From Bacilli bacterium (GTDB taxonomy: Bacteria; Bacillota_I; Bacilli_A; RFN20; UBA1709), in NCBI GenBank assembly GCA_050949315.1, contig JBMNFL010000001.1, positions 224,001 to 288,000 of the forward strand: DNA of 64,000 nt. Direction: 5' to 3'. The notes below the pieces were generated by a model, which was not told the DNA's origin, searched no databases, and was given only the letters and a program-made list of their open reading frames with translations. Position 1 is the first letter of the stretch. Every line of letters starts with the position of its first letter. Shown here in pieces: positions 11,950-33,628 of the stretch. A program made the translations under genes and the position numbers.

Positions 11950-13704
11950 ATGTTAAGTGATTTACTTAAGGAAAAACTAGCCTTATTAAAGCCCTTGCCT
12001 GGCTGCTATTTGATGAAGAATAAGGATGATCAAATTATCTATGTTGGCAAGGCTAAATTTTTAGATAAAAGGGTTAAGTCCTATTTTAACAGGCCCCATA
12101 ATGGTAAAACGGCTAAGATGGTAAGGGAAATTTTTACTTTTGAAACGATTATCACTTCAACGGAAAAAGAGGCTCTGCTTTTAGAAATAAATCTAATTCA
12201 CACTTATAATCCGCCTTATAATATCCTGCTTAAGGATGATAAGGCTTATCCATATATTCAATTAAAGCTTGATACCCATCCTTACCTAGGAATCGCAAGA
12301 AGGATTAAAGATAAGAATTCTAAATATTATGGACCGTATCCTGAGGGGAAAGCCGCTAGATCTACCCTTAATCTTTTAAATAGGATTTTTCCTTTACGTA
12401 AGTGTCGTAGTTTACCTAAAAAGCCCTGTCTTTATTATCATATCGGTCAATGTTTAGCACCTTGTATCAATAAGATAGCAGAGGAAACCTATCAAGAACT
12501 CATTCAAAAGATCCAGCGTTTTATGCAGGGGGATAGCAAAGATATTCGTGATGAACTAGTAAAGAAGATGCAAGAATGTTCAGAAGCTCTAGCCTTTGAA
12601 CGGGCAAAAGAGTATAAGGAGATCATTGAGGGAATTGATCATATTACCAGTCAACAAAATGTTCAGACGAATAATAAAATTGATAAAGATGTCATCGCCT
12701 TTCATAGTAAGGATGGCGACTTAGCCATCAGTATTTTATGTTTTCGCTCAGGTATTTTAAAACTTAAACACAGTGAGGTTGTCAGTTGTTATGGCGAGGT
12801 TGAAAATCAGTTTATCAGCTACCTTATGCAGTATTATGAAAAGGAATTAAAACCCCAACTTTTAATTATGCCAAAACTCAGTGATGCCCCCTTACTTTCG
12901 GAAGTTTTAGAATTAAAAATTATTGCACCAAGTAGAGGAAATAATTTAGTTTTATTACAGATGGCTGCCCAGAACGCCATTAGTGCGATGGAGGAAAAAC
13001 ACCTAAACAGTAAACAAGATTTGCGGGTTTTAGCCGTTTTAGATGAACTTGGAAAACGCCTTAATATTAAAACGCCTTACCGTATTGAACTCATAGATAA
13101 TTCCCACTATCAGGGTGATGCGGCCGTTAGTGCGGTGGTGGTTTTTATCAATGGTTTACCTGCTAAAAGACTCTATAGGAAATATAAGATTAATAATGAA
13201 GAAACCCGTGATGATGCCGCCAGTATGTATGAGGTTATCTATCGGCGTTATTACCGCTTGTTAAGTGAGAAAGGAAAACTTAGTGACCTTTTGATTGTCG
13301 ATGGTGGGCCCAGTCAAATTCTAGCCGCCAAGAAAGCTTTATCGTCTTTAAATTATGATTTACCAGTAGTGGGTCTTGTTAAAGATAGCAAGCATCAAAC
13401 CTCAGCATTAATGCAGGCTGATGGTCTTTTAATAAATATTCAAGATTTACCAGAACTCTTCTTTCTTTTGAGCAGGATGCAAGATGAGGTGCATCGTTTC
13501 GCCCTCAGTTATCACCATGATAGAAGAAGCAAGGATTTGTTTAAATCAGAACTCGATGGAATAGCAGGTTTGGGTAAGGTGCGCAAGCAAGCTTTACTTA
13601 AGGCTTTTGGCAGTGTTAGCAAAATTGCAGAGGCCTCGTTAGAAGAATTATTACAATATGTTCCTAAAGCCGTTGCTATCGCCATAAAAGATAAAATTGG
13701 CTAA
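11950..13704 (+). CDS. uvrC: Excinuclease ABC subunit C
   Basis: GIY-YIG (PGCYLM..IYVGKA), DNSH, VDGG, DEVHRFA, C-terminal HhH. Confidence 0.97.
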   Translation: MLSDLLKEKLALLKPLPGCYLMKNKDDQIIYVGKAKFLDKRVKSYFNRPHNGKTAKMVREIFTFETIITSTEKEALLLEINLIHTYNPPYNILLKDDKAYPYIQLKLDTHPYLGIARRIKDKNSKYYGPYPEGKAARSTLNLLNRIFPLRKCRSLPKKPCLYYHIGQCLAPCINKIAEETYQELIQKIQRFMQGDSKDIRDELVKKMQECSEALAFERAKEYKEIIEGIDHITSQQNVQTNNKIDKDVIAFHSKDGDLAISILCFRSGILKLKHSEVVSCYGEVENQFISYLMQYYEKELKPQLLIMPKLSDAPLLSEVLELKIIAPSRGNNLVLLQMAAQNAISAMEEKHLNSKQDLRVLAVLDELGKRLNIKTPYRIELIDNSHYQGDAAVSAVVVFINGLPAKRLYRKYKINNEETRDDAASMYEVIYRRYYRLLSEKGKLSDLLIVDGGPSQILAAKKALSSLNYDLPVVGLVKDSKHQTSALMQADGLLINIQDLPELFFLLSRMQDEVHRFALSYHHDRRSKDLFKSELDGIAGLGKVRKQALLKAFGSVSKIAEASLEELLQYVPKAVAIAIKDKIG

Positions 13705-13775
13705 ATCTACCTTATTTTCTTGAACAATTGGGAAGTTTAATCTATAATTAAGCCATATTGGAGGGGCCTTTAATT

Positions 13776-16361
13776 ATGCGAAAAAAAGTATCGAAAGAAA
13801 CTACGAAAACGGAAGAAGTCTTGAAAGAAACCGACGTGCTTGAAAAAGTGTCAAAGAAGAAAGTTTCTGAACAAGAAAAAGCCGTTGCCCCTAAAAAGAC
13901 CAGAAAGAGTACTAGAAAGACCTTTGCCAATGTTGAAACCAAAAATGATGCCCCTAAAGTAGAAAAAGAGAAAGAAAAAGTTAGAAGCTCGAAAAGAGTC
14001 ACAATCAATAGAGGACTATCAGCTGTTGATGTTCAGGAGCGTATAGAGGCTGGTCTAGTAAATATCACGGTCAATAAGAATGCTAAGACGACAAAACAGA
14101 TCGTAGTTAGCAATGTTTTTACTATCTTTAACTTATTAAATCTTTTTGTAGCTACCGCCTTAATTGTGGCAGGTTCTTACAAAAACCTTCTATTTTTAGC
14201 GGTTATTATTTGTAATACCGTCATCGGTATTGTTCAAGAGATTAAGGCCAAGGCTACAATTGAATCGCTATCTTTAGTTTCCGCCCCAGTGGTGACGGTG
14301 GTGCGCGATGGTCGTAAGAGTTTTGTCAAGGCCGATGAATTAGTCGTCGATGATATTGTCATCTTTGAAGCCGGTAAGCAAATTGTCGCTGACTGTGTGG
14401 TTCGCAAGGGTATTGTTGAAGTCAATGAATCACTCTTAACGGGTGAATCAGAGTCAGTTGTTAAGAAATTTGGTTCTTTACTTTATTCGGGTAGTTATGT
14501 AGTATCGGGTGAATGTTATGCCCGGGTTGAAAGAGTAGGGCAGGAAAACTATGTTCAACAACTAGCCGATCAAGCCAAACATTATAAAAAGCCCAGTTCT
14601 GAGATCATGCGGGCTTTAAATCAATTGATTAAAATCATCACTTTGGTAGTCATCTTATCAGGTGGCATCCTTTTCTATAATAATTATGTGGTCGTTGGGG
14701 CTAGCTGGGAAGAGGCAGTAGTGGCGACAGCTGGCAGCATGATAGGCATGATTCCTTCAGGCTTGTATTTAATGACTAGTATTTCTCTTGCCTATGGAGT
14801 AATTCGACTGGGGCAAAGGAAGACCCTAGTTCAAGATCTTTATTGTATTGAGATGCTCGCCCGCGTGGATGTCCTCTGTCTTGATAAAACAGGAACCATC
14901 ACCGATGGGACCATGAGGGTTAAAGATGTGATTGAATATGAGGGCGAAACCGAAAGTAGTTTAAAACAGATTGTGGCCTTAGTTTTAGGTAACACTAAAG
15001 AAAACAATGCCACTGCTGAAGCTTTAAAGAAAAAGTTTGGCATGGTTAAACGAGCAACTACTAGGGCTATCGTGCCTTTTTCTAGTGCCCGTAAATATAT
15101 GGCGGCCTACTTTGAAAATAAAAAACTCTCCTATCTTATAGGGGCCCCAGAATTTGTTTTAAATCAGGATTATAAGGAATCGCTTGTTTCTACTGAGGTT
15201 GATAAATTCGCCCGTCAGGGTTTAAGAGTGTTACTTGTGGCCTCTAGTCCAACTAAAATCACATCGCCCAATCAAAACTTTAGTGATGTTAAACCTCTAG
15301 CTTTAATTACTATTGAAGATGTGATTCGTAAAGATGCGATTGAGACCATCCAATATTTTAAGAACAGCGATGTCAATGTTAAGGTTATCTCAGGTGATAA
15401 TCCCCTAACGGCTTCTAAGATTGCCCTAAGGGCGGGGATTGAAAATGCTAATCGCTCTATTTCTTTAGATGGTATGGCCGATGATGTGGTGGCGAAGATT
15501 GCCGAACACTATACGGTTTTTGGCCGAGTTTCGCCTAAGCAAAAGCAGATTCTTATCCGAGCACTGAAAGAAAAGAAACATACGGTGGCGATGACAGGTG
15601 ATGGTGTCAACGATATTCTAGCCTTAAAAGAAGCGGATTGTAGTATCGCCATGGCCAATGGTAGTGAAGCCACCCGCAATGTCTCACACTTAGTTTTATT
15701 AGATTCTAATTTCTCTTCTATGCCAGCAGTTGTGCAGGAGGGAAGACGGGTTATCAATAACATTCAGCGCGTAGCGACCATGTTCTTAACTAAGACCATT
15801 TTCTCCTTCCTTCTTACCATGATCTGTGTCATCTTTGGCCTTATCTATCCAATTCAATCAATTCAACTCATCATCTTTGATTGGTTTATCATTTCCTTAC
15901 CATCCTTATATCTAGCCTTAGAACCGAACAATACCCAAGTCAAAGGGCGCTTCCTATTTGAGGTCTTCTTAAACGCCTTACCAGGGGCTTTACTAATTGT
16001 CTTTAACTATGGTGTTATTCGCTTATTAGCGCCAGCTGCTGGCTTTAGTGATGCCGTTATTTCAACCCTCACGGTTATCTCAATTATCTGTGTTGGTTAC
16101 ACCGTTTTAGCTAAGGTCTGCCGTCCCTATAACAACAATAGGCGGATTATGTATGCCTTGATGCTGGTTTTAGGTATTACCATGTACTTTACCTTAGGAC
16201 CCATACTCTTAGAAATAGTTGATATCAAAGAGTTAGGAATTAACGCCATTTTACTAGCGATTTGTTTAGGACAATTTATCTATCCCGCTTATTCTTTCTT
16301 AGTCAAAACTGGTCAAGTGGTTCGTAAAGGTGTTTCTATGAAAAACATCGTCAATATTTAA
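13776..16361 (+). CDS. P-type ATPase, CtpE-like, substrate uncertain
   Basis: LTGES, DKTGT, ISGD, TGDGVND; about 10 hydrophobic segments; Lys/Glu-rich N-terminal extension; ATG 13776 after GGAGG. Confidence 0.93.
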   Translation: MRKKVSKETTKTEEVLKETDVLEKVSKKKVSEQEKAVAPKKTRKSTRKTFANVETKNDAPKVEKEKEKVRSSKRVTINRGLSAVDVQERIEAGLVNITVNKNAKTTKQIVVSNVFTIFNLLNLFVATALIVAGSYKNLLFLAVIICNTVIGIVQEIKAKATIESLSLVSAPVVTVVRDGRKSFVKADELVVDDIVIFEAGKQIVADCVVRKGIVEVNESLLTGESESVVKKFGSLLYSGSYVVSGECYARVERVGQENYVQQLADQAKHYKKPSSEIMRALNQLIKIITLVVILSGGILFYNNYVVVGASWEEAVVATAGSMIGMIPSGLYLMTSISLAYGVIRLGQRKTLVQDLYCIEMLARVDVLCLDKTGTITDGTMRVKDVIEYEGETESSLKQIVALVLGNTKENNATAEALKKKFGMVKRATTRAIVPFSSARKYMAAYFENKKLSYLIGAPEFVLNQDYKESLVSTEVDKFARQGLRVLLVASSPTKITSPNQNFSDVKPLALITIEDVIRKDAIETIQYFKNSDVNVKVISGDNPLTASKIALRAGIENANRSISLDGMADDVVAKIAEHYTVFGRVSPKQKQILIRALKEKKHTVAMTGDGVNDILALKEADCSIAMANGSEATRNVSHLVLLDSNFSSMPAVVQEGRRVINNIQRVATMFLTKTIFSFLLTMICVIFGLIYPIQSIQLIIFDWFIISLPSLYLALEPNNTQVKGRFLFEVFLNALPGALLIVFNYGVIRLLAPAAGFSDAVISTLTVISIICVGYTVLAKVCRPYNNNRRIMYALMLVLGITMYFTLGPILLEIVDIKELGINAILLAICLGQFIYPAYSFLVKTGQVVRKGVSMKNIVNI

Positions 16362-16368
16362 AAAGATA

Positions 16369-16397
16369 TTGAAAATTCCCCATAAAGAGTTTATATT
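16369..16397 (+). promoter_or_regulatory. Sigma-A-like promoter for tRNA-Arg
   Basis: TTGAAA-17 bp-TATATT just upstream of the tRNA. Confidence 0.55.
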
Positions 16398-16407
16398 AAA
16401 CTCGCGT

Positions 16408-16484
16408 GTCCACATAGCTCAGTCGGATAGAGCAACTGCCTTCTAAGCAGTAGGCCGGGGGTTCGAGTCCCTCTGTGGACGCCA
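16408..16484 (+). tRNA. tRNA-Arg (anticodon TCT)
   Basis: GTCCACA/TGTGGAC acceptor stem, ACTGC-CTTCTAA-GCAGT anticodon arm, GTTCGAG T-loop, encoded CCA. Confidence 0.97.
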
Positions 16485-16497
16485 GTTAGCAATCTAT

Positions 16498-16528
16498 GAG
16501 TCCGAGGGGTCGGACTCTTTTTGTTTTT
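16498..16528 (+). terminator. Intrinsic terminator after tRNA-Arg
   Basis: GAGTCCGA-gggg-TCGGACTC hairpin plus T-tract. Confidence 0.85.
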
Positions 16529-16600
16529 AATCAAGTAATCTTTACAAGAAAAAGAAATTGTTATAAAATTGATATATCGAATTTTAGGAGGCTTACCACA

Positions 16601-16927
16601 ATGGAAAGATTAGATATGTTAAGAGCGCGGATTGAGAAATTCAATGAAGATAGGAATTGGGATCAATTCCATTCTCCTGCCAATTTGGCTAAATCTATTT
16701 CTATTGAAGCAAATGAACTTTTGGAGTGCTTTCAGTGGAATGAAGAGGATTACAATATCGAAAATGTCAAAGAAGAGTTAGCCGATGTCATCAACTATTG
16801 TCTACAAATGGCGAATAAACTCAATGTTGATGTCATTGACATAGTAAACAAAAAAATGGATAAAAGTGAAAAGAAATATCCTGTTGAAAAAGCCAAGGGT
16901 GTTTCCACTAAATATAACAAGTTGTAA
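16601..16927 (+). CDS. MazG-superfamily nucleotide pyrophosphohydrolase (DCTPP1/RS21-C6-like)
   Basis: RNWDQFHSPANL, EANELLECFQW, EELADV, KKYP motifs; ATG 16601 with AGGAGG RBS; TTTACA-17-TAAAAT promoter at 16541-16569. Confidence 0.9.
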   Translation: MERLDMLRARIEKFNEDRNWDQFHSPANLAKSISIEANELLECFQWNEEDYNIENVKEELADVINYCLQMANKLNVDVIDIVNKKMDKSEKKYPVEKAKGVSTKYNKL

Positions 16928-16953
16928 AGATTAAAGAGTTATTAGGAGTTTTT

Positions 16954-18915
16954 ATGGAACAGATAGTTTATCAAGAAACCTTGCAAACATTTATCAATCA
17001 TTGTTTAGTTACAAGAAATATTGCCGATAAAGTAAAAACTGGGATGTTCAATGCGGGTCATGTGAACGTGCTACCTAATTGGGAAACCTCTTGGCAGAAT
17101 TCATTACCCGAGATTGCTAAAGTCCTTCAAAACAGCAGTGTTGATAGTGATGTTGATGTGGCAGTTGAATACAGATTAAAACACAGTTTAGAAAGATTGG
17201 ATTTTCTCATCTATGGACTAGATAAAGAGGATAGGAAGAACATGGTCATTGTGGAATTGAAACAATGGTCAGAAGTTAGTCCCTCAGAATCTTTAAATAG
17301 GGTTCACACAATGGTCGCCAAAAGTTATTTTGAGGATCATTTCCATCCATCATATCAAGCATATAATTATGCCGGTCAATTAAAGGCATTTAATGCTTAT
17401 GTTCAAACTGAAAAGATGGGAATCAAGTCTTGTTCATATTGTCATAACATGGATGCTGGATACAAGACCATAATGGGAGATATACAGTTATATCCATTTA
17501 TTTCTGAATCGCCCTCTTTTCTAGAAAACGATGGTCAAAAGCTTAAAGAGTTTGTTGAAAGGTATGTTTCTAAAAAGTGTCACAACATTCTCTATGAAAT
17601 CAATAAAGCCAAAACCATTCCCTCAGATGATTTTGCCAAACTCATGCGTGAGGCCTTGAGTGGTAATCAAATGTATACGCTAGATATGGGCCAATCTAAT
17701 GCCTTAAGCACCATCGTGGATGCCGTAAGAGAAGCTAGTTACTATAACCAAAAGAAAACAATCATTATTAAAGGTGGTGCAGGTACAGGGAAATCTATTA
17801 TTGCTATCAATGCTTTAGGTTTATTGAATAGTCCAAAGAGAAAAAGCGATAGAATTACAACGATGTTTGTAACTGTTAATGCTGCGCCAAAGAAGGTCTT
17901 ATACAACGGATTAATTGCAGGCAATGCCTTCAAAGGGAGAGACTTAAGCGCTCTGTTTAAATATCCAACTGCTTTCGCAAATAGGCCAAATAATGAAATA
18001 CCTTGCCTTTTGATTGATGAAGCCCATCGTATTTTTAAGATGAAGGGTGGTGTTGGTCTTAGAGCAGGCACAAATATGCTTAAAGAACTTATCAAGGTGG
18101 CAAAAGTTTCAGTCTTCTTTATTGATGACAATCAGGCTGTTACTAAAGATGATTACGCCACCATTGATATCATTAAAGAGATTGCTAGGGAATGTCGCTC
18201 TCAAGTGCTTATAGGACCCGAATTAGAATTAACAGGTCAGTATCGTGTTCAAGGTGGAGCAGAGTATATTGAATTCATTAAATCGTTCCTCGGAATAAAT
18301 GATGAAAAAACCACTTTCAACATGAACAATTCATACGAATTTAAAGTATTTGATGACCCTAATGAAATGTTTGATAAAGTTAAGGAATTAGATACCGAAG
18401 CTAGAAAGAAACAAGCAGTAGCCGATGGAAAGTTTGAATTTGCTATCGATGAATATAATGGTCATTCTAGAGTGGTGGCAGGATATACTTACGAATGGGT
18501 TTCCAACCCTACCACAAGAGATGGTGTTAATGATGTTATCATCGCCAAAGATAATTTTGCAAAGAAATGGAATCTCAGATATGGAAGTGGCTTAAGGGCT
18601 TATTCTTGGGCGGATGATCCCTTGTCTATTGATGAAATTGGTTGTATTCATACCTGTCAAGGAATCGATTTAGATTATTGCGGTGTAATTATTGGAAAAG
18701 ACATTACTTATGAAAATGGTAGAATAGTTTTCCATAAGGATGCCCACCCAACAAGCGATTTCGCAGGTATCCGAACCGCTAATGATGTTGATGCGGAAAC
18801 TTGGATTAAAAATACATACTATGTACTTCTTACAAGAGGTATTCGTGGAACATTTGTATATTGCGAAGACGATGCTTTAAGGGATTATCTAAAGAGCATG
18901 CTAGTAACAGAATAG
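16954..18915 (+). CDS. DUF2075 (Schlafen group 3 helicase-like) ATPase with N-terminal PD-(D/E)xK nuclease-like domain
   Basis: RLDFLIYG..VIVELKQW; Walker A GGAGTGKS; Walker B LIDEAHR; GCIHTCQGIDLDY; NTYYVLLTRG. Confidence 0.88.
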   Translation: MEQIVYQETLQTFINHCLVTRNIADKVKTGMFNAGHVNVLPNWETSWQNSLPEIAKVLQNSSVDSDVDVAVEYRLKHSLERLDFLIYGLDKEDRKNMVIVELKQWSEVSPSESLNRVHTMVAKSYFEDHFHPSYQAYNYAGQLKAFNAYVQTEKMGIKSCSYCHNMDAGYKTIMGDIQLYPFISESPSFLENDGQKLKEFVERYVSKKCHNILYEINKAKTIPSDDFAKLMREALSGNQMYTLDMGQSNALSTIVDAVREASYYNQKKTIIIKGGAGTGKSIIAINALGLLNSPKRKSDRITTMFVTVNAAPKKVLYNGLIAGNAFKGRDLSALFKYPTAFANRPNNEIPCLLIDEAHRIFKMKGGVGLRAGTNMLKELIKVAKVSVFFIDDNQAVTKDDYATIDIIKEIARECRSQVLIGPELELTGQYRVQGGAEYIEFIKSFLGINDEKTTFNMNNSYEFKVFDDPNEMFDKVKELDTEARKKQAVADGKFEFAIDEYNGHSRVVAGYTYEWVSNPTTRDGVNDVIIAKDNFAKKWNLRYGSGLRAYSWADDPLSIDEIGCIHTCQGIDLDYCGVIIGKDITYENGRIVFHKDAHPTSDFAGIRTANDVDAETWIKNTYYVLLTRGIRGTFVYCEDDALRDYLKSMLVTE

Positions 18916-18926
18916 GAGTTTATATT

Positions 18927-19112
18927 ATGTTTACCCCTGAAAAAATTAAAGAAATACGAAGAGAAATGATGATGACCCAAACCGAGTTTGCGGAATATTT
19001 AGGTATTGCCTTTGTTTCCGTGAATAGGTATGAAAATGGTAAATCTAGGCCAACTTTTAAAGTTCAAAGAAAATTAGCAGAGCTTGAGAAGAAATTGGGC
19101 TTGCTTAAATAG
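18927..19112 (+). CDS. Xre/Cro-type HTH protein
   Basis: IKEIRR..MTQTEFAEYLG..SVNRYENGKSRP; ATG 18927 with AGGAG RBS overlapping the upstream stop. Confidence 0.9.
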   Translation: MFTPEKIKEIRREMMMTQTEFAEYLGIAFVSVNRYENGKSRPTFKVQRKLAELEKKLGLLK

Positions 19113-19494
19113 TTTAAAAGGTAAAATGTTTTCTTTTATTGATATAAAATGGTATAGGTCAAAAATAAGCAGAAAAAGAACAACTGAGCAAAAATGCTGA
19201 TTTTGAAAAACTGCGCAGTATAATTCAAACAGATGGCAAGAGATTTTTACACTTTTTTAAGAAAGACAATCACAAAAAGGTTGCCTCTTCTATAAAAGAT
19301 ATTTAGTAAAAACAAAAAGAGAATAAGTGACTGATAGAAAATGATCTTATTAATTGAAAAACACCAAGAAATATGCTACAATTATCATGTATTAAATGAA
19401 TTCATTGGGTTGTCAAAATAAGCTAAAAATCATTAGAGTAGGAGTATTGATTGACAACAGTTTTTAGGGTAATAAAGGTATGAGGTGGGATAAT

Positions 19495-20361
19495 ATGCCT
19501 AAAACTTCAGTTAGATTTTTTAAAAACACACCCGTTCGTGCTGTTTGGGATGAAGAAAGTTCTAAATGGTGGTTTTGTGCGACGGATACTGTTGAAGCCT
19601 TAAAGATAAGTGTCAGTCCAAGAAAATATTGGAACAGTTTAAAGAGACGAAAAAAAGAGTTGTCATCAAATTGTAGACAACTGAAATTAAAAGCCAGTGA
19701 TGGCAAATTTTATAATACTGATGTTATTGATGAGCAAGGCTTGAATACACTAACTGGTATCATTTCAAGTAATAAAAGTGAGACATTCTTAAAATGGATG
19801 AAGAATTTGGAAACCTCTCTTGATGAAAAGAGCAAACTAAAAGCTTATGAACTTTTTGAAAGTGGTTTGATTGATAATATTGAAGTAGGAACAGTAAAAG
19901 GCTTGCAACAAATTCATGCCTATATTTTTGGTGGCTTGTATGATTTTGCGGGCAAGATTCGCAGGATGAATATTTCAAAGGACGGCTTTATTTTTGCCTC
20001 AGCAAAGCATCTACCAGAAACTCTACGCATGATAGAACAAATGCCAGAAGATACACTTGAAAACATTGTCGCTAAATATGTGGAAATGAATATTGCGCAC
20101 CCCTTTATGGAAGGCAATGGTAGAAGTAGCCGAATTTGGCTAGATGCCATATTAAAAAAGAAACTCGGTGCTTGTGTTGATTGGAGCAAGATAGGGAAAT
20201 ACGATTATCTACAAGCCATGAAAGAAAGTGTAGTGAAAATAGACAAAATATTTACTTTGATTAAAAAAGCTTTAACCACTGAGATTAATTCTCGTGAAAT
20301 TATAATGAAGGGCATCGATTATTCCTATTATTATGAGGAGATTGATGAGAAGATGCCTTAG
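19495..20361 (+). CDS. Bro-N-like domain fused to class III Fic AMPylase
   Basis: [23 protein letters not shown]-terminus; [12 protein letters not shown]; C-terminal SYYYE inhibitory motif; ATG 19495 after GAGGTG. Confidence 0.9.
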
Positions 20362-20375
20362 AGGTTAAATAAAAA

Positions 20376-21495
20376 TGTTTAATATCAAATGATGTGAGAC
20401 AAAATTAATAAAAAAAAGTAGGCATCTTATCTATAATGAAGTTGAACCAATATAGAAGGAGATGCCCATGGATATTTTAACACAAGAAAGAAATTATATA
20501 CCAGTAGATATTGAAACAAAATTACACGCCTGCTTAAGGAGGACGGTTTCGTCCTGGCCAATAAGAAAAATTCTATCTTTTTATCACGTTAAAAGGAGTT
20601 CGTTATATCGTTGGTTAAAGCGATTTGATGGAAGTAAAGAATCGTTATTAAATCGATCACATAGGCCTTTATCGGATCATCCTAATAAATTAAAAGCGAA
20701 TATTGTTAAGAGAATACTAGATCTCCACAGAAGAAATCCTGATCAATCATTTGTTGAAATATGGGTTAGATTAAAACATGATGGTATAGATATCTCGCCA
20801 TCTAGTGTTCTAAGAACCTTTAAAAGAAATGAAGAATTTGTTCCCTACAAACCAAATCCTAAAAAGCATGACAAACAATACCATACGCCCAAAATGGTTC
20901 ATGAAAAATGGCAAATGGATGTTAAATATGTTCCCAAAGAATGCAAAATTGATAGTTTGGAAGGTCGATTTTATCAATACACTATCTTAGATGAATGTTC
21001 ACGAAAAAGAGTTCTTTATTTCACGGCCGAACATTCAATGTATGAAAGTGTTCAGGCTTTGATCTTCGCTTATAAGAAAATAGGTTGTTTTCCAAAGGAA
21101 ATTCAAACAGACAATGGTGTGGAATTCACTGATAAAGTTCGCCGCAAAAATAAGGGCGTGAATGTTAGAAAATATGAAAACTATTTAGAAAGATTTTGTA
21201 GAACAAACCATATAAATCATCACTTGATAAGGCCTAGAACCCCCCAACATAATGGTAAGGTAGAAAGAAGTCATCGAATTGATCAAGATAAATTCTATAA
21301 ACATTTAAAATTTTATTCCCTCGATGATCTTAGATATCAAGGTAAATTATGGAACAAAAGATACAACAATTTACCTAAGCTTGTTCTTAAATTTAAAACA
21401 CCTAATGAAGTGGAACTTGAAAAGTTAATTGAATTGGTTCAAACTACTGGTGAGATAAGATGTAAGAAACGTCTCACATCATTTGCAACCTAACA
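20376..21495 (+). mobile_element. IS481-family insertion sequence, copy 1 (1120 bp, no target duplication)
   Basis: TGT...ACA ends; 25-bp imperfect IRs (TGTTTAATATCAAATGATGTGAGAC / TGTTAGGTTGCAAATGATGTGAGAC); boundaries defined by identity with copy 2. Confidence 0.95.
20462..21493 (+). CDS. IS481-family DDE transposase
   Basis: N-terminal HTH; WQMDVK, QTDNGVEF, TPQHNGKVERSHR. Confidence 0.95.
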   Translation: MPMDILTQERNYIPVDIETKLHACLRRTVSSWPIRKILSFYHVKRSSLYRWLKRFDGSKESLLNRSHRPLSDHPNKLKANIVKRILDLHRRNPDQSFVEIWVRLKHDGIDISPSSVLRTFKRNEEFVPYKPNPKKHDKQYHTPKMVHEKWQMDVKYVPKECKIDSLEGRFYQYTILDECSRKRVLYFTAEHSMYESVQALIFAYKKIGCFPKEIQTDNGVEFTDKVRRKNKGVNVRKYENYLERFCRTNHINHHLIRPRTPQHNGKVERSHRIDQDKFYKHLKFYSLDDLRYQGKLWNKRYNNLPKLVLKFKTPNEVELEKLIELVQTTGEIRCKKRLTSFAT

Positions 21496-22966
21496 TTATG
21501 CCGCTTTTTATGGCTGCGAAGCTTTGACGGCCTTAACTATTCCGGCTAAAGTTAAAAGAATTGATAATGCAATTGTAAGTAACTGTAAAGCTTTAGCTAA
21601 TCTTACAGTTGAAGAAGCCAATAATGTCTATGATTCAAGGAATGATTGTAAGGCCATTATTCATAAGGCCACCAATACCTTACATACCGCTTGTAAGAAT
21701 ACGACCATTCCTACTACAGTAAGCACTATCGGACCTAATGCTTATGGTGCTTGTAAAGAAATGACAACAATTACCATACCCACTACTGTTACCACGATTG
21801 GGGCTGGGGCTTTTTCAGAAATGGCCTTAGAAAGCGTTACTATTCCCAATAGTGTTACTAAGTTAGGTAATGGAGCCTTTGATAGTTGTAGTAAACTAAC
21901 TAGTGTTAGTATTGGCAGTGGAATTAAACATATCAATGCTTGGACTTTCAGCGGGTGCGAAGATTTGAAAACAATTACTATTCCTAACAATGTTGTTTCA
22001 ATTGGTTCCATGGCCTTTTCTTGGTGTCCAGAATTAACAACTGTTAATCTTGGAACCGGACTTGTAAGTCTTGGTGAAGCCGTTTTTTCTGGTTGCCATA
22101 AATTAACTACTATCACTATTCCTAGTAGTGTTCAAGTTCTAGGAATGGGTTCGCTATCTAATTGTAATCAATTGGCGACCATTAATTTTGGAACGGGTCT
22201 AAGGATAATTAGAGATGGGGCCTTCTCTTCTAACCCCGCTTTAACCAGCATCACTATTCCTAATAGTGTTACTCAACTTGGTAGTGGGGTCTTCAGCCAT
22301 TGCGAGGCTTTAGAAACAGTTACGCTATCTAGTAACCTTACTTCTATGGGCGATGCCCTCTTTGTTGGTTGTATAGCTTTAAAGGCTCTAAATATTCCTA
22401 AGAAAGTTACTAGAATTGGGGAAAACATTGTATGTGGTTGTGAGGCTTTAGCAAGTATTACGGTTGATACTGCTAATACGGTCTATGATTCACGTTATGC
22501 TTCTAATGCCATTATCGATAAGAAAACTGATGTTTTGCTCTTTGGCTGCAAAGAAACAGTTATTCCATCGTCAGTTAAGGCAATCGGACCGAATGCCTTT
22601 AGAGAAAACACCGCTTTAACCACCTTTACCGTGCCTGTGAATGTTAAAGCCATTGGCGACTCTGCTTTCCTTGGTTGTTCAAACTTAGCAAGTGTTAAAT
22701 TACACGATGCCCTTGAAAGCATTGGTGAAGAGGCTTTCTGTAGTTGTTATAACCTTGAAAGTGTAGTTATTAATTACTCAGTCACTAGCATTGGTGAACT
22801 AGCCTTCACCAGTGGCAAATTATACTGCAGGGCTTCGGTTAAACCCGCAGGCTGGCATGATAATTGGGCGGGCGACATGTGTGAAGTTTATTGGTATAGT
22901 GCTAATCCAGTTTTAGATGGTCAGCACTGGCATGAAGTAGATGGTGTGCCAACGGTTTGGGAATAA
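21496..22966 (+). pseudogene. 5'-truncated BspA/TpLRR-type leucine-rich repeat surface protein
   Basis: Repeats of L..ITIP.SV..IG..AF..C; frame reads YAAFYGCEALTALTIP from 21497 right up to the IS end; no RBS, canonical start or signal peptide. Confidence 0.85.
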
Positions 22967-23001
22967 CAATTATAAAGATTAAAATAGTTATTTAGATGCT
23001 G

Positions 23002-23047
23002 AAAACATCTCAAATCTTTTAGTAAAGAGGCGAGATGTTTTTCTTTT
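23002..23047 (+). terminator. Terminator after LRR gene
   Basis: AAAACATCTC...GAGATGTTTT stem plus T-tract. Confidence 0.65.
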
Positions 23048-23106
23048 GATTGCTTTTAAAAGTTTAAAATAGTAATATATGCATATACTAAAAGGCAGGT
23101 TGAAAG

Positions 23107-24027
23107 ATGGTTAAAGAACTGATTGAAAAGGGAAATTATAAAGAGGCTTTAAGGCTTATTGGCTCTAAAGATGATGAGTTGAGTCTATATCAAAAGGCGG
23201 CATGTCTATATGGGCTTAACAAGAAAGAAGCGGCTTTAGAGACCTGTAAAGAGGGCGTAGTTAAAAGTTCTAAACTCTACTACGATTTCTTGGCTTTAGA
23301 ACTCTCTTTGCTACTAGAATTAGAGCAGGAAGAAGAGGCCTTGAGTATCTTAGAAGAAGAGCTTTCCATGCCTTATATTCCTTCAAAATATGAGACCGTT
23401 TTTAGTGATATCTATGAGAAGTTGTTAAAGAATAAGAGGGCAGAGGAAAAGTCTTATTCCCCCTTTGATTTGCTTAGTAGTGAGGAATTAAAAGAACTGC
23501 TTAAACCGCATCAAAGTCCCGAGATTTTACTAACGGCCATCTATCAACTTGAGAAGCGCAATGTCCGGCTGTTTATGGATGTCGCTCTTCCTTTTTTAGA
23601 AAGCGAGGCCCCTAACTATTTAAAGACCGCTATGCTTGAGGTCTTAAGCAATCAAAAGATTGACCTTAATCTAAGGCTTAAGAAAGGCTGTTTTGAACTT
23701 GAGATAAATCCTAAGGATTTAAAGCCTTTAATGCAACAAGAAGCCTTAAAAAGCTTAGAAGCCTATATTAGGGAGTTTAATAAGCCTAAGGATGTCAGTG
23801 TGAATCAGGATGCCTATGACTTACTTATAAGTTATCTAGCCGATCTTTATCCTTTAGAAGTGGGTGAAGATGAATATAAGTATTTAGCCGCTGCCTTATA
23901 TTATGCGGCAATCAGTAATTATCAAGAAGATTATGATTTAGAAACTTTGGCCGAAGAAGAACACCTAAAAATAGAACTGATTCAGGCTTATTACGATAAA
24001 ATCGTAAACTTACCGAGTATATTTTAG
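23107..24027 (+). CDS. Hypothetical helical/TPR-like protein (DUF3196-like)
   Basis: TPR-like N-terminus, LEEELSMPYIP motif, position upstream of tig. Confidence 0.6.
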   Translation: MVKELIEKGNYKEALRLIGSKDDELSLYQKAACLYGLNKKEAALETCKEGVVKSSKLYYDFLALELSLLLELEQEEEALSILEEELSMPYIPSKYETVFSDIYEKLLKNKRAEEKSYSPFDLLSSEELKELLKPHQSPEILLTAIYQLEKRNVRLFMDVALPFLESEAPNYLKTAMLEVLSNQKIDLNLRLKKGCFELEINPKDLKPLMQQEALKSLEAYIREFNKPKDVSVNQDAYDLLISYLADLYPLEVGEDEYKYLAAALYYAAISNYQEDYDLETLAEEEHLKIELIQAYYDKIVNLPSIF

Positions 24028-24099
24028 CAAAATATTTGCACAAGCCGTTCTTCTATGCTAAAATACGCTAGCGTATCAAGGAAAGAAGGAAAATAGATT

Positions 24100-25383
24100 A
24101 TGAAACTTAAAGTAGATAAACAAGGTGCCTTAGTAAGTGCCGAGGTGGAATTAGAAAAAGAAGAGTGGCAGGAAGCCCAAAAGAAAGCCGTTATGAAACT
24201 GGCTAAGAAAATTACGGTTCCTGGCTTTCGTAAGGGGAATGCCCCTTATGATAAGGTTAAGAGTTTAGTCGATTCTCAAAAGGCTTTAGAAGAGGCTATT
24301 GATAGTGTCTTGCCCAAGGCCTTTAAAGAAGTTTTAAAGCAAGAAAAAGATTTACATGTCCTTATTCAACCGGCCGTTGATGTTCTTAAACTCAGTGCTG
24401 AAGAGCTCGTTATTAAGTTTACCATCACCACTAGACCAGAAGTTGTTTTAGGGGCTTATAAGGATATTGAGATTAAAAAAGATGCCATCACTGTCAGTGA
24501 TGAAGAGATAAATAAGGGTCTTGAAGACCTTCGTCAACAATGTGCGACCATTAGCCTTAAAGAAGATGGTGTCATTGAAAAGGGAGACCTTGTAAATTTT
24601 GACTTTATCGGTTATGTTGATGGTAAGCCCTTTGACGGCGGTAAGGGCGATAAATACGAATTAGAGATTGGCTCTAAGCGTTTCGTTCCCGGCTTTGAAG
24701 AGCAGATGCTAGGCTTAAAAAAGGGAGAAGAAGCTAAAATTGTCATCACTTTCCCTAAGGACTATGTCAAGGATTTAGCCGGTAAGGAAGCGACTTTTGA
24801 ACTTAAGATCAATGAGATTAGTGTCAAGACCTTACCAGAAATTGATGATGAATTAGCCTTAGATGCCAATATTGAAGGCGTTAGTAATCTTACCGATTTG
24901 CAGCAACATCTTTTCACAACCTTAAGTGAAAGGAAAGAAGTTGAAGCCGAGAATAAGGCGGCGAATGAACTGATTGAAAGGATAGTCGCTAATGCGACGG
25001 TTGAGATTCCCCAAACGCTAGTGGAAAATGAATTACCACATGAGTTTGAACACTACAAAAAGGATGTAGAAAGCAAGGGTATTCCTTTTGATAAATACCT
25101 AGAAATCGCTGAGATGAGCGAAGAAAAGGTTAAGGAGCAAATGCGGATCAATATCGCTAAGAGTTTAAAGGTGATGTTTACCTTAGGGGCTATTGCTGAG
25201 GCCAACAAGATTGAGGTCACAGAAGAGGATATCAATCAGGAATTTGAACTGCTGGCCACGCAATATGGCCTTGAAGTTGAGAAGATTAAAGAGTATATGA
25301 AAAACCAAATGGAGCAACTAGCTAACCAGATTTATTCGCGCAAGGTAACCGATTATATCTTGTCCGTCAATAAATTAGTTTAG
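24100..25383 (+). CDS. tig: Trigger factor
   Basis: PGFRKG ribosome-binding motif; FKBP domain (FDGGK, FVPGFEEQ, FPKDY). Confidence 0.97.
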   Translation: MKLKVDKQGALVSAEVELEKEEWQEAQKKAVMKLAKKITVPGFRKGNAPYDKVKSLVDSQKALEEAIDSVLPKAFKEVLKQEKDLHVLIQPAVDVLKLSAEELVIKFTITTRPEVVLGAYKDIEIKKDAITVSDEEINKGLEDLRQQCATISLKEDGVIEKGDLVNFDFIGYVDGKPFDGGKGDKYELEIGSKRFVPGFEEQMLGLKKGEEAKIVITFPKDYVKDLAGKEATFELKINEISVKTLPEIDDELALDANIEGVSNLTDLQQHLFTTLSERKEVEAENKAANELIERIVANATVEIPQTLVENELPHEFEHYKKDVESKGIPFDKYLEIAEMSEEKVKEQMRINIAKSLKVMFTLGAIAEANKIEVTEEDINQEFELLATQYGLEVEKIKEYMKNQMEQLANQIYSRKVTDYILSVNKLV

Positions 25384-32458: not shown

Positions 32459-32483
32459 TTTCCACTTCTTTATTTTACAAATA
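32459..32483 (+). repeat. Left 25-bp target-site duplication of IS copy 2
   Basis: TTTCCACTTCTTTATTTTACAAATA, identical to 33604-33628. Confidence 0.95.
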
Positions 32484-33603
32484 TGTTTAATATCAAATGA
32501 TGTGAGACAAAATTAATAAAAAAAAGTAGGCATCTTATCTATAATGAAGTTGAACCAATATAGAAGGAGATGCCCATGGATATTTTAACACAAGAAAGAA
32601 ATTATATACCAGTAGATATTGAAACAAAATTACACGCCTGCTTAAGGAGGACGGTTTCGTCCTGGCCAATAAGAAAAATTCTATCTTTTTATCACGTTAA
32701 AAGGAGTTCGTTATATCGTTGGTTAAAGCGATTTGATGGAAGTAAAGAATCGTTATTAAATCGATCACATAGGCCTTTATCGGATCATCCTAATAAATTA
32801 AAAGCGAATATTGTTAAGAGAATACTAGATCTCCACAGAAGAAATCCTGATCAATCATTTGTTGAAATATGGGTTAGATTAAAACATGATGGTATAGATA
32901 TCTCGCCATCTAGTGTTCTAAGAACCTTTAAAAGAAATGAAGAATTTGTTCCCTACAAACCAAATCCTAAAAAGCATGACAAACAATACCATACGCCCAA
33001 AATGGTTCATGAAAAATGGCAAATGGATGTTAAATATGTTCCCAAAGAATGCAAAATTGATAGTTTGGAAGGTCGATTTTATCAATACACTATCTTAGAT
33101 GAATGTTCACGAAAAAGAGTTCTTTATTTCACGGCCGAACATTCAATGTATGAAAGTGTTCAGGCTTTGATCTTCGCTTATAAGAAAATAGGTTGTTTTC
33201 CAAAGGAAATTCAAACAGACAATGGTGTGGAATTCACTGATAAAGTTCGCCGCAAAAATAAGGGCGTGAATGTTAGAAAATATGAAAACTATTTAGAAAG
33301 ATTTTGTAGAACAAACCATATAAATCATCACTTGATAAGGCCTAGAACCCCCCAACATAATGGTAAGGTAGAAAGAAGTCATCGAATTGATCAAGATAAA
33401 TTCTATAAACATTTAAAATTTTATTCCCTCGATGATCTTAGATATCAAGGTAAATTATGGAACAAAAGATACAACAATTTACCTAAGCTTGTTCTTAAAT
33501 TTAAAACACCTAATGAAGTGGAACTTGAAAAGTTAATTGAATTGGTTCAAACTACTGGTGAGATAAGATGTAAGAAACGTCTCACATCATTTGCAACCTA
33601 ACA
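32484..33603 (+). mobile_element. IS481-family insertion sequence, copy 2 (1120 bp, 25-bp TSD)
   Basis: Same ends and identical transposase to copy 1 at offset 12108; flanked by an exact 25-bp direct repeat. Confidence 0.96.
32570..33601 (+). CDS. IS481-family DDE transposase
   Basis: Protein identical to 20462-21493. Confidence 0.95.
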   Translation: MPMDILTQERNYIPVDIETKLHACLRRTVSSWPIRKILSFYHVKRSSLYRWLKRFDGSKESLLNRSHRPLSDHPNKLKANIVKRILDLHRRNPDQSFVEIWVRLKHDGIDISPSSVLRTFKRNEEFVPYKPNPKKHDKQYHTPKMVHEKWQMDVKYVPKECKIDSLEGRFYQYTILDECSRKRVLYFTAEHSMYESVQALIFAYKKIGCFPKEIQTDNGVEFTDKVRRKNKGVNVRKYENYLERFCRTNHINHHLIRPRTPQHNGKVERSHRIDQDKFYKHLKFYSLDDLRYQGKLWNKRYNNLPKLVLKFKTPNEVELEKLIELVQTTGEIRCKKRLTSFAT

Positions 33604-33628
33604 TTTCCACTTCTTTATTTTACAAATA
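33604..33628 (+). repeat. Right 25-bp target-site duplication of IS copy 2
   Basis: Identical to 32459-32483. Confidence 0.95.

Follow-up and report, generated by a model that had tools for sequence, protein, structure and literature searches.

Introduction

Proteins that combine a nuclease with a DUF2075 helicase have the antiviral Schlafens as their eukaryotic cousins. In prokaryotes, Nhi (SERP2475 of Staphylococcus epidermidis) and the Nhi-like proteins carry an N-terminal PD-(D/E)xK nuclease and a DUF2075 helicase of superfamily 1B (SF1B) in one polypeptide; both have been reported as single-gene anti-phage proteins, the Nhi-like ones by Millman et al. (2022), and are described from mobile elements and defence islands. 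DUF2075-type ATPases are also counted as defence genes in AbiO and PDC-S41, and their Pfam family, PF09848, has been listed among the Abi families. Here we analyse a relative of these proteins that is encoded next to a nucleotide pyrophosphatase, in a stretch of 64,000 nucleotides (the window) from a Bacilli bacterium (GenBank assembly GCA_050949315.1, contig JBMNFL010000001.1, positions 224,001 to 288,000 of the forward strand). A gene for a MazG-like pyrophosphatase (gene 1) is followed by one for a nuclease–DUF2075 helicase (gene 2) and one for a small helix-turn-helix (HTH) protein (gene 3). We found that genes 1 and 2 are paired far beyond chance, and we see about even chances that they make up a mobile defence module of two genes, directed against phages or other invading DNA, with MazG removing non-canonical deoxynucleoside triphosphates (dNTPs).

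The locus shares the nuclease–helicase architecture of Nhi and the Nhi-like proteins. These are, however, single-gene systems as described, whereas the clade of gene 2 has a MazG partner in about half of the cases, sometimes fused to it. PDC-S41 is similar in length to gene 2, and some gene 2 relatives match its N-terminal part, but neither PDC-S41 nor AbiO has a described MazG partner. The McaZI group of DUF3427 enzymes has a DUF2075 neighbour, and the same neighbours stand at three of the related loci considered below (L016, L017 and L036); the window, in contrast, holds no DUF3427 gene, and the accessible part of the paper on that group does not mention a pyrophosphatase (PMC6765204). Gabija and Hachiman couple a helicase sensor to a nuclease, and Gabija has also been linked to nucleotide levels. 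Here, unlike in those systems, nuclease and helicase share one chain, the protein families are others, and the second gene encodes a MazG pyrophosphatase. Gene 1 itself resembles DCTPP1/RS21-C6 and an archaeal pyrophosphatase (4qgp) in belonging to the all-alpha MazG-like fold family PF12643, and its acidic residues and both tryptophans align with theirs. It differs from DCTPP1/RS21-C6 in being a bare domain of 108 amino acids in a prokaryotic defence-type operon, and in the residue at the position of mouse H38. DCTPP1 enzymes have been described as acting on 5-methyl-dCTP metabolism (PMC4491611).

Results

Genomic pairing of MazG and DUF2075 genes

The three genes and the predicted domains of gene 2 are as follows.

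16601..16927, forward strand: gene 1, MazG-like pyrophosphatase, 108 amino acids, starting at an internal ATG of the open reading frame (ORF) 16496-16927
16954..18915, forward strand: gene 2, putative PD-(D/E)xK nuclease and DUF2075 helicase, 653 amino acids, an ORF
16954..17673, forward strand: N-terminal PD-(D/E)xK nuclease domain of gene 2, residues 1-240, from an invariant motif and the predicted fold
17752..18870, forward strand: DUF2075/Schlafen group-3 SF1B helicase of gene 2, residues 267-639 (PF09848)
18927..19112, forward strand: gene 3, Xre-type HTH protein, 61 amino acids, starting at an internal ATG of the ORF 18861-19112

All three lie on the same strand, with 26 bp between genes 1 and 2 and 11 bp between genes 2 and 3, in the compact layout given by a preliminary description of this DNA made from its letters. 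AGGAG(G) precedes every start, and the ribosome-binding site of gene 1 reads AGGAGG.

The preliminary description had put the three genes forward as a candidate anti-phage system and had suggested measuring how often the pair of genes 1 and 2 recurs. An alignment of 13 DUF2075 homologues was used to collect 60 related loci (numbered with L below) from species-representative genomes, and MazG was searched for in them by tblastn with the window proteins. Loci cut by contig ends were kept, so the counts are a floor. In at least 23 of the 60 loci MazG lies on the same strand as DUF2075 and within ~310 bp of it: upstream in 9 of these 23 and downstream in 13; in the remaining one (L021) it has a DUF2075 paralogue on either side. 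When the 591 called ORFs of these loci were clustered all against all, MazG was the only neighbour family common to many loci (22), with HTH next (10), and nearly all other neighbour families were unique to their own locus.

The pairing was also seen in a sample of 400 Bacilli genomes, where DUF2075 had a match (E <= 1e-10) in 99 of 400 and MazG (E <= 1e-5) in 174 of 399. With adjacency taken as the same strand and a gap of <= 250 bp beyond the open frame, MazG adjoins DUF2075 in at least 48 of the 98 DUF2075-positive genomes (this genome excluded), a minimum, as are the other adjacency counts, since 150 of the 217 MazG matches entered them. This divides into at least 30 of 66 full-length-type matches and at least 18 of 32 shorter, more divergent DUF2075 proteins; in three further sampled genomes MazG is within 3 kb of DUF2075. 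Among the matches listed, the fraction of MazG genes beside DUF2075 was 15/30 at E <1e-40, 20/48 at 1e-40 to 1e-30, and 8/40 and then 5/31 in two weaker bands. The chance that two given genes of a 1–3 Mb genome are adjacent is of the order of one in a thousand, and the pairing of gene 1 with gene 2 is far beyond it.

Annotated pairs occur outside these samples. On a plasmid of Priestia aryabhattai, genes for MutT, an MrcB_N-domain protein, a 'nucleotide pyrophosphohydrolase' and a 'DUF2075 protein' are followed by type I restriction-modification (RM) genes, and on one of Ligilactobacillus salivarius an annotated MazG–DUF2075 pair stands beside type I RM genes. A plasmid of the archaeon Halalkalicoccus jeotgali and the record of the Microcystis phage Mwe-JY31 each hold an annotated pair, with MazG 30% and 46% identical to gene 1, respectively.

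Separately, we noted that DUF2075 paralogues can stand in tandem (L021:4000-7860, L024:6001-10098, L097:2998-6984, L029 and L061), and that a single MazG gene is flanked by two of them in L021 and L024.

The pyrophosphatase and the nuclease-helicase

Gene 1 matches the Pfam family MazG-like PF12643 with 68.2 bits against a cut-off of 27 (E 7.8e-19). Its best solved relatives (phmmer against the PDB) are the archaeal pyrophosphatase 4qgp (7e-18) and mouse and human RS21-C6/DCTPP1 at ~1e-14 (1.2e-14 for RS21-C6/DCTPP1), and it contains the sequence motif from which it had been assigned to the DCTPP1/RS21-C6 branch of MazG enzymes; that assignment holds. Residues E36, E39, E59, D62, W20, H24 and Y93 are invariant among 41 homologues, and E42 and W46 are conserved in 40 of the 41. 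The ExxE...ExxD acidic motif of the MazG family is present, and E36, E39, E42, E59 and D62 align with E63, E66, E69, E95 and D98 of mouse RS21-C6, which we take to be metal ligands. Given the conservation of the acidic residues of the MazG active site, the enzyme looks active.

The helicase part of gene 2 is well defined. It matches PF09848 (SLFN-g3 helicase, formerly DUF2075) at 9.5e-80 over residues 267-639, with a Walker A motif, GGAGTGKS, at 274-281 and DEAH at 355-358. A model of the full-length protein (predicted local distance difference test, pLDDT, 85.6) retrieved RecD at 1.9e-10 with Foldseek, then SLFN11, Dna2, Upf1, RecD2 and Dda. In the N-terminal domain, R81-L-D83...E101-L-K103, E72 and Q135xxxY139 are invariant among 45 homologues. 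The first 240 residues modelled alone gave a pLDDT of 93.4, and the best rows of a VIA-align search with this model, headed by Can2 (Z 8.4) and continuing with the nuclease part of Upx, VC1899, Cdn1, Card1, NucS, BsoBI, NucC, McrC and SduA, are almost all PD-(D/E)xK nucleases. Foldseek found nothing for the same model at E <= 0.001; its best match was Card1 at 7e-3, and its top rows were again PD-(D/E)xK nucleases. Searching the PDB with the sequence of gene 2 gave no match at E <= 0.01. VIA-align itself rates a Z of ~8 as only middling, so fold class and motif have to be taken together, and on these the N-terminal domain is predicted to adopt the PD-(D/E)xK nuclease fold. The Pfam match, the invariant motif and the model thus agree with the earlier view of gene 2 as a PD-(D/E)xK-like nuclease (RLD..ELK) joined to an intact DUF2075 domain.

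A subgroup of gene 2 homologues of 780-820 amino acids carries a C-terminal Peptidase_S24 domain (LexA/UmuD-like) without an HTH (at least P0112, at residues 659-786, and P0086, P0088, P0092, P0098, P0099, P0105, P0106, P0108, P0111 and P0117). It is a possible self-cleaving switch and hints that part of the family is perhaps switched by RecA-type signals, which would fit defence or repair.

Against PADLOC v2.0.0, gene 1 matched no family at E <= 0.01. The matches of gene 2 were weak and partial: Nhi (PDLC02372) at 1.2e-9 and 35.3 bits, with residues 187-481 against positions 131-375 of 470; AbiO (PDLC02350) at 1.8e-9, over residues 238-482 only; and PDC-S41 (657 positions) at 1.8e-11, over residues 566-637. 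Eight gene 2 relatives, fusions among them, were similarly weak against PADLOC (Nhi at 1e-7 to 1e-15). That the locus is an already named system was accordingly rejected for PADLOC v2.0.0. By architecture gene 2 appears to be Nhi-type, and its weak matches place it in a putative separate clade. The preliminary description was aware of no characterised system with this pair. As regards gene 1 this stands, as PADLOC v2.0.0 has no MazG model and no open paper was found that joins the two families; the nuclease–DUF2075 architecture itself, however, is that of Nhi, Nhi-like and AbiO. No paper describing a MazG–DUF2075, MazG–Nhi or MazG–Schlafen partnership turned up in the open full text of PMC and bioRxiv, although supplements, subscription papers and newer defence databases may list it. 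The MazG partnership therefore seems undescribed, and the effector class itself is known.

Fusion proteins

The two domains also occur in one chain. PF09848 was found in 7 of the 120 listed MazG homologues of >=190 amino acids (P0177, P0183, P0193, P0194, P0211, P0226 and P0235), with MazG N-terminal in some and C-terminal in others. P0177 consists of MazG followed by a full-length gene 2 homologue, nuclease domain included, which is 44% identical over residues 4-650. In the fungal fusions P0226 and P0235 (Rhypophila and Alternaria) MazG is joined to no more than the helicase part. Fusions in metagenomic data may arise artificially by read-through; the present ones come from several independent clusters, in both orientations, and include two NCBI fungal proteins. 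Fusions and adjacency together are strong evidence for a functional link and not for a physical complex. A complex prediction for gene 2 with gene 1 scored 0.00 against a mark of 0.32, which speaks neither for nor against binding.

Other partners of the long MazG homologues are NUDIX, Macro, GAF, GNAT, methyltransferase and HhH-GPD domains; P0151 is a MazG–methyltransferase fusion. We also observed an N-terminal MazG-like domain followed by ~350 residues without a Pfam match in P0141, P0147, P0152, P0162, P0169 and P0195 (450-466 amino acids), MazG with a HerA-type DUF87 domain in P0124, and MazG with JetD_C in P0196.

Neighbourhood of the related loci

To describe what surrounds the DUF2075 genes, one representative of each ORF cluster, of >=90 amino acids and within 3.5 kb, was scanned (107 with Pfam, 106 with PADLOC, and a few more with Pfam); L046-L048, where TGA encodes tryptophan, were excluded. 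Clear defence genes lie near DUF2075 in at least 21 of the 57 remaining loci, a count made without a background control and so supportive rather than a statistic. To that extent the defence neighbourhood, the other check that had been suggested for the candidate system, is present. The neighbours are as follows.

Wadjet: L003
AbiE: L007, L033, L052, L054
Mrr: L008
Cas9, directly downstream: L013, L018
ResIII-DUF3427 enzymes: L016, L017, L036
GmrSD with a D12 methylase: L027
Type IIG-like RM unit: L031, L032, L037, L040, L041
Orf5/HEC-06: L035
SoFic: L049, L053
BrxL: L052
DpdF/GajB-like giant helicase: L055

The surroundings of L010, L011, L014 and L019-L026 are plain metabolic genes.

Some of the neighbours deal with modified cytosine or with unusual nucleotides. 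DUF3427 enzymes are modification-dependent endonucleases, some of which adjoin a DUF2075 NTPase (PMC6765204). In L017 the large neighbour adds a PLD nuclease to ResIII-DUF3427, and the member of the same cluster in L036 matches the PADLOC model for type IV methyl-directed restriction at 1.5e-190. On the Priestia plasmid, the protein with an McrB-type N-terminal domain (PF12102, MrcB_N, 1.5e-51) overlaps the start of the MazG gene. NUDIX/MutT-like genes stand beside DUF2075 or MazG in L015:804-1193, L036:5438-5839, L049:5179-5592 and L092:1903-2277, the copy in L049 matching the PADLOC candidate PDC-S07 at 7.5e-46, and the MutT gene of the Priestia plasmid is also near the pair; such genes would supply a second nucleotide-sanitising enzyme to the neighbourhood. 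The modified-cytosine neighbours belong to a minority of loci, and none is in the window itself. Together with the kinship to DCTPP1 they are the basis, not a demonstration, for a putative preference of gene 1 for substrates of the 5-modified dCTP type.

Several further associations were observed around the module. An HNH_4 protein (317-394 amino acids) and a TehB-like S-adenosylmethionine-dependent methyltransferase (~200 amino acids) form a recurrent set beside it (L016:2235-6803, L017:8302-13956, L050:4435-5962, L055:8212-9168 and L080:2132-3914), joined in L016 and L017 by the ResIII-DUF3427 enzyme. In two Bacillota genomes a gene 2 homologue is immediately upstream of cas9 (L013:8137-12576, and L018, where an ORF of 1318 amino acids follows DUF2075), and PF09848-ResIII proteins have been reported from type III CRISPR loci in a preprint. 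In L082:5904-6482 (G029) an ORF that matches the C-terminal part of PD-Lambda-1 (4.6e-75) adjoins a gene 2 homologue of 35% identity. Fic proteins recur beside DUF2075: at window 19480-20361; at L047:5126-5986, directly upstream of DUF2075 and 52% identical to the Fic protein of the window; at L049:3945-5051 and L053:3351-4493, which are SoFic-like; and at L080:4987-6036, after a DUF2075 remnant.

The HTH gene

Gene 3 is an Xre HTH protein, as first proposed: it matches HTH_3 (PF01381) at 2.3e-13, with 50.4 bits against a cut-off of 23. It resembles the C-terminal part of MqsA and also the HTH part of the antitoxins HipB and PezA, and its PADLOC matches, to RmrA, a control protein and capH, are weak. 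We considered the HTH protein as a third component, as it had been in the preliminary description, and rejected it. Only five of the 60 loci (L031, L032, L037, L040 and L041) have a homologue directly after DUF2075, and MazG is absent from all five. There the homologue stands in front of a type IIG-like RM unit: in L031, L040 and L041 the next proteins match models of type II methyltransferases and type IIG restriction-methyltransferases, and in L032 and L037 only methyltransferase-cluster ORFs follow before the contig ends. No gene 3-like gene accompanies the closest relatives of gene 2 (77-82% identity, L002-L008). Because its homologues are rare, stand without MazG in these five loci and are missing from the closest gene 2 relatives, gene 3 is best read as a local addition acquired in this lineage, and probably as a transcriptional regulator.

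The island and its other contents

The operon begins just downstream of a tRNA gene. The remaining features of the site are as follows.

16408..16484, forward strand: tRNA-Arg (TCT), found by ARAGORN; the island starts just downstream of it
16498..16517, forward strand: terminator-like hairpin followed by a T run, closing the tRNA unit, read from the sequence
16541..16569, forward strand: promoter-like site TTTACA-17-TAAAAT, a match to the -35/-10 consensus, 32 bp before the start of gene 1
19480..20361, forward strand: Bro-N and Fic protein, PADLOC candidate PDC-S04 (2.4e-127), with Fic and Bro-N domains (NCBIfam Fic adenylyltransferase, 8.7e-78)
20371..21497, forward strand: insertion sequence (IS) element with an rve transposase (ORF 20462-21493; rve and HTH domains)
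21524-22966 of the window: BspA-type leucine-rich repeat (LRR) protein at the island's distal end; it contains an internal repeat of 138 nt

The site at 16541-16569 had been described as the operon's own promoter. The consensus match is there; such sites are, however, no commoner in our scan (19) than in shuffled sequence (21.9), which leaves position as the one ground for the promoter.

We searched the DNA of 20 relatives with window 11950-25000. The order of UvrC, a P-type ATPase and the tRNA is conserved in relatives, and the ~85-bp tRNA stretch is found in all of them. The distance from the tRNA to the next conserved gene (at ~24.4-24.9 kb of the window) is 1.36-1.55 kb in G402, G403, G404 and G408, 2.6 kb in G405 and about 17 kb in G409, and ~8 kb here; in G407, MazG and DUF2075 matches occur together on another contig. 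Judged by the short spacing in the four same-family relatives, ~6.6 kb (roughly 16.49-23.1 kb) is an insertion at a tRNA-adjacent variable site. It comprises MazG, DUF2075, HTH, Bro-N/Fic, the IS and the LRR gene, and its G+C content is slightly low (0.32-0.37 against ~0.39). On the far side of the island we found no att-like direct repeat of the tRNA 3' end, and within it no integrase, the IS transposase being the only such gene.

The IS, of ~1.12 kb, has seven matches of 100% identity in the 1.01-Mb genome, this copy included; it also lies at window 32479-33605, and degraded fragments of it are present. This suggests that it was recently active. The LRR protein is likely to be a surface protein with no connection to the operon. 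Near-identical copies of window 16400-19400 occur in contigs of 19 listed DNA runs (20 rows from 12 studies of landfill, anaerobic digester, bioreactor and plain metagenomes), of which 17 rows are possibly the source of this DNA and so are not independent.

Discussion

In the defence module that we propose, gene 2 would be the effector. Its SF1B helicase would load on foreign replication or recombination intermediates, and its N-terminal PD-(D/E)xK domain would cut them; an attack on foreign replication intermediates is reported for Nhi. Gene 1 would act on the nucleotide pool as a constitutively active DCTPP1-like pyrophosphatase and hydrolyse non-canonical dNTPs, among which 5-modified dCTP or comparable precursors made by phages are the likeliest substrates. 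A phage would then be unable to build modification-protected DNA, and its DNA would stay cleavable; at the same time, modified nucleotides from degraded phage DNA would be kept out of host DNA, leaving the host unmarked. Gene 3 would take part as a local Xre regulator. The defence phenotype, the substrate of MazG and the mode of cooperation are what we infer here.

Across distant loci MazG stays 60-78% identical, and its DUF2075 partner falls to 35-45%. MazG may thus be read as one conserved small-molecule activity, the sanitation of non-canonical nucleotides, that would be harmless if constitutive and has been repeatedly recruited by a fast-evolving effector. A bolder form of the proposal, which we hold tentatively and think doubtful, would make MazG a dedicated pool-editing arm of immunity. 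It would destroy hypermodified dNTPs made by phages (e.g. 5-hydroxymethyl-dCTP), strip phage DNA of its anti-restriction modification, and spare host DNA the foreign mark that recycled modified nucleotides would give it, together with an Nhi-like enzyme and often modification-dependent restriction. The coupling would be old, with the pair in bacteria and archaea and the fusion in fungi.

Several observations weigh against a defence module with a MazG of this kind. About half of the DUF2075 genes have no adjoining MazG, so MazG is not obligatory. Conversely, 20 MazG genes of 58-73% identity to gene 1 do not adjoin a DUF2075 match. Their neighbours are mostly transporters, peptidases, NrdD, a MutY-like HhH-GPD+NUDIX_4 gene and nucleoside phosphorylase; the exceptions are L066, by an 871-amino-acid DEAD/ResIII helicase, L075, near a Schlafen AlbA_2 protein, and L080, with the order HNH, methyltransferase, MazG, DUF2075 remnant and Fic. 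Linked MazGs do not form a clade of their own but are scattered among the stand-alone copies in a tree built from 41 MazG proteins (11 changes, compared with 13.8 on average after shuffling); only 4 of its 37 inner branches are well supported, which makes it weak either way. MazG may therefore be a general housekeeping sanitiser that DUF2075 genes have merely recruited, and gene 1 is the sole MazG-like gene in this genome. At the position of mouse H38 gene 1 has I11, and its substrate preference cannot be read from its sequence. The homology of gene 2 to a validated system appears distant, its PADLOC matches being weak and partial (1e-9 to 1e-11). No modification-reading Pfam domain was recognised in gene 2. 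Type IV restriction is marked by such a domain in or beside the nuclease; DUF3427, SRA, PUA, MrcB_N and GmrSD were absent from genes 1-3 and from the next three window genes in a Pfam search, and domains of this type occur only near some of the related loci.

A rather unlikely alternative is genome maintenance, in which MazG, often with NUDIX/MutT, cleans damaged or non-canonical dNTPs and the nuclease-helicase processes stalled forks or DNA containing such nucleotides, loosely like Schlafen-11. The single MazG-like gene of a 1-Mb genome would suit such a role, as would the fusions of MazG to NUDIX, HhH-GPD and Macro domains, the recurring NUDIX neighbours and the stand-alone MazG beside a MutY-like gene in L079. 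The LexA/UmuD-type S24 domain of some DUF2075 homologues points the same way, and so do the fungal fusions, where phages are no issue. A maintenance function is, however, hard to reconcile with a distribution as patchy as 99 of 400 genomes (and 20 of 40 within the most heavily sampled family of this order), with flanks that are unrelated in nearly all loci, and with a tRNA-adjacent island that is missing from relatives. The occurrences on plasmids and in a phage record and the RM, Abi and CRISPR neighbours also argue for defence instead, as does the rapid divergence of DUF2075 beside a slow MazG.

Triggered depletion we regard as unlikely. The helicase-nuclease would sense phage DNA, and a bound or fused MazG would then hydrolyse canonical dNTPs or NTPs in bulk, starving the phage and perhaps relieving nucleotide inhibition of the nuclease, as has been proposed for Gabija. 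Depletion of dNTPs is an established defence strategy, dCTP deaminases and dGTPases being examples of bulk depletion, and physical coupling is suggested by fusions in both orientations; nucleotide hydrolysis by the Gabija partner has, moreover, been reported to cooperate with a nucleotide-inhibited nuclease. Yet MazG is here a protein of 108 amino acids with no regulatory domain, and the closest characterised relatives, the DCTPP1 enzymes, act on the metabolism of a modified nucleotide as described. Near-identical stand-alone orthologues among housekeeping genes also fit a selective constitutive activity better. They argue against bulk depletion of dCTP, which the preliminary description had offered as one role of the pyrophosphatase; selective hydrolysis of unusual dNTPs, its other suggestion, fits better.

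A toxin–antitoxin-like control, in which MazG holds off a toxic nuclease-helicase until infection (e.g. by removing an activating nucleotide) and the HTH protein is a transcriptional antitoxin, is very improbable: the operon is tight and gene 3 is like the HTH part of MqsA, HipB and PezA, but half of the DUF2075 genes have no MazG and almost none has this HTH, MazG genes are kept where DUF2075 is absent, and in its five loci the HTH homologue precedes an RM-like unit.

The pairing of MazG with DUF2075 is robust; the function that we propose for it is inferred. If MazG were only a recruited housekeeping sanitiser, the finding would shrink to a new Nhi-like clade with a frequent neighbour. Nuclease–DUF2075 proteins such as Nhi, Nhi-like and AbiO are regarded as single-gene defences, and a DCTPP1-like partner would add a nucleotide-pool component to them. 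If the proposed module is real, defence by selectively clearing non-canonical nucleotides would differ in mode from bulk dNTP depletion and would directly counter hypermodification of phage DNA. The fungal MazG–DUF2075 fusions hint that the coupling matters outside prokaryotes as well.

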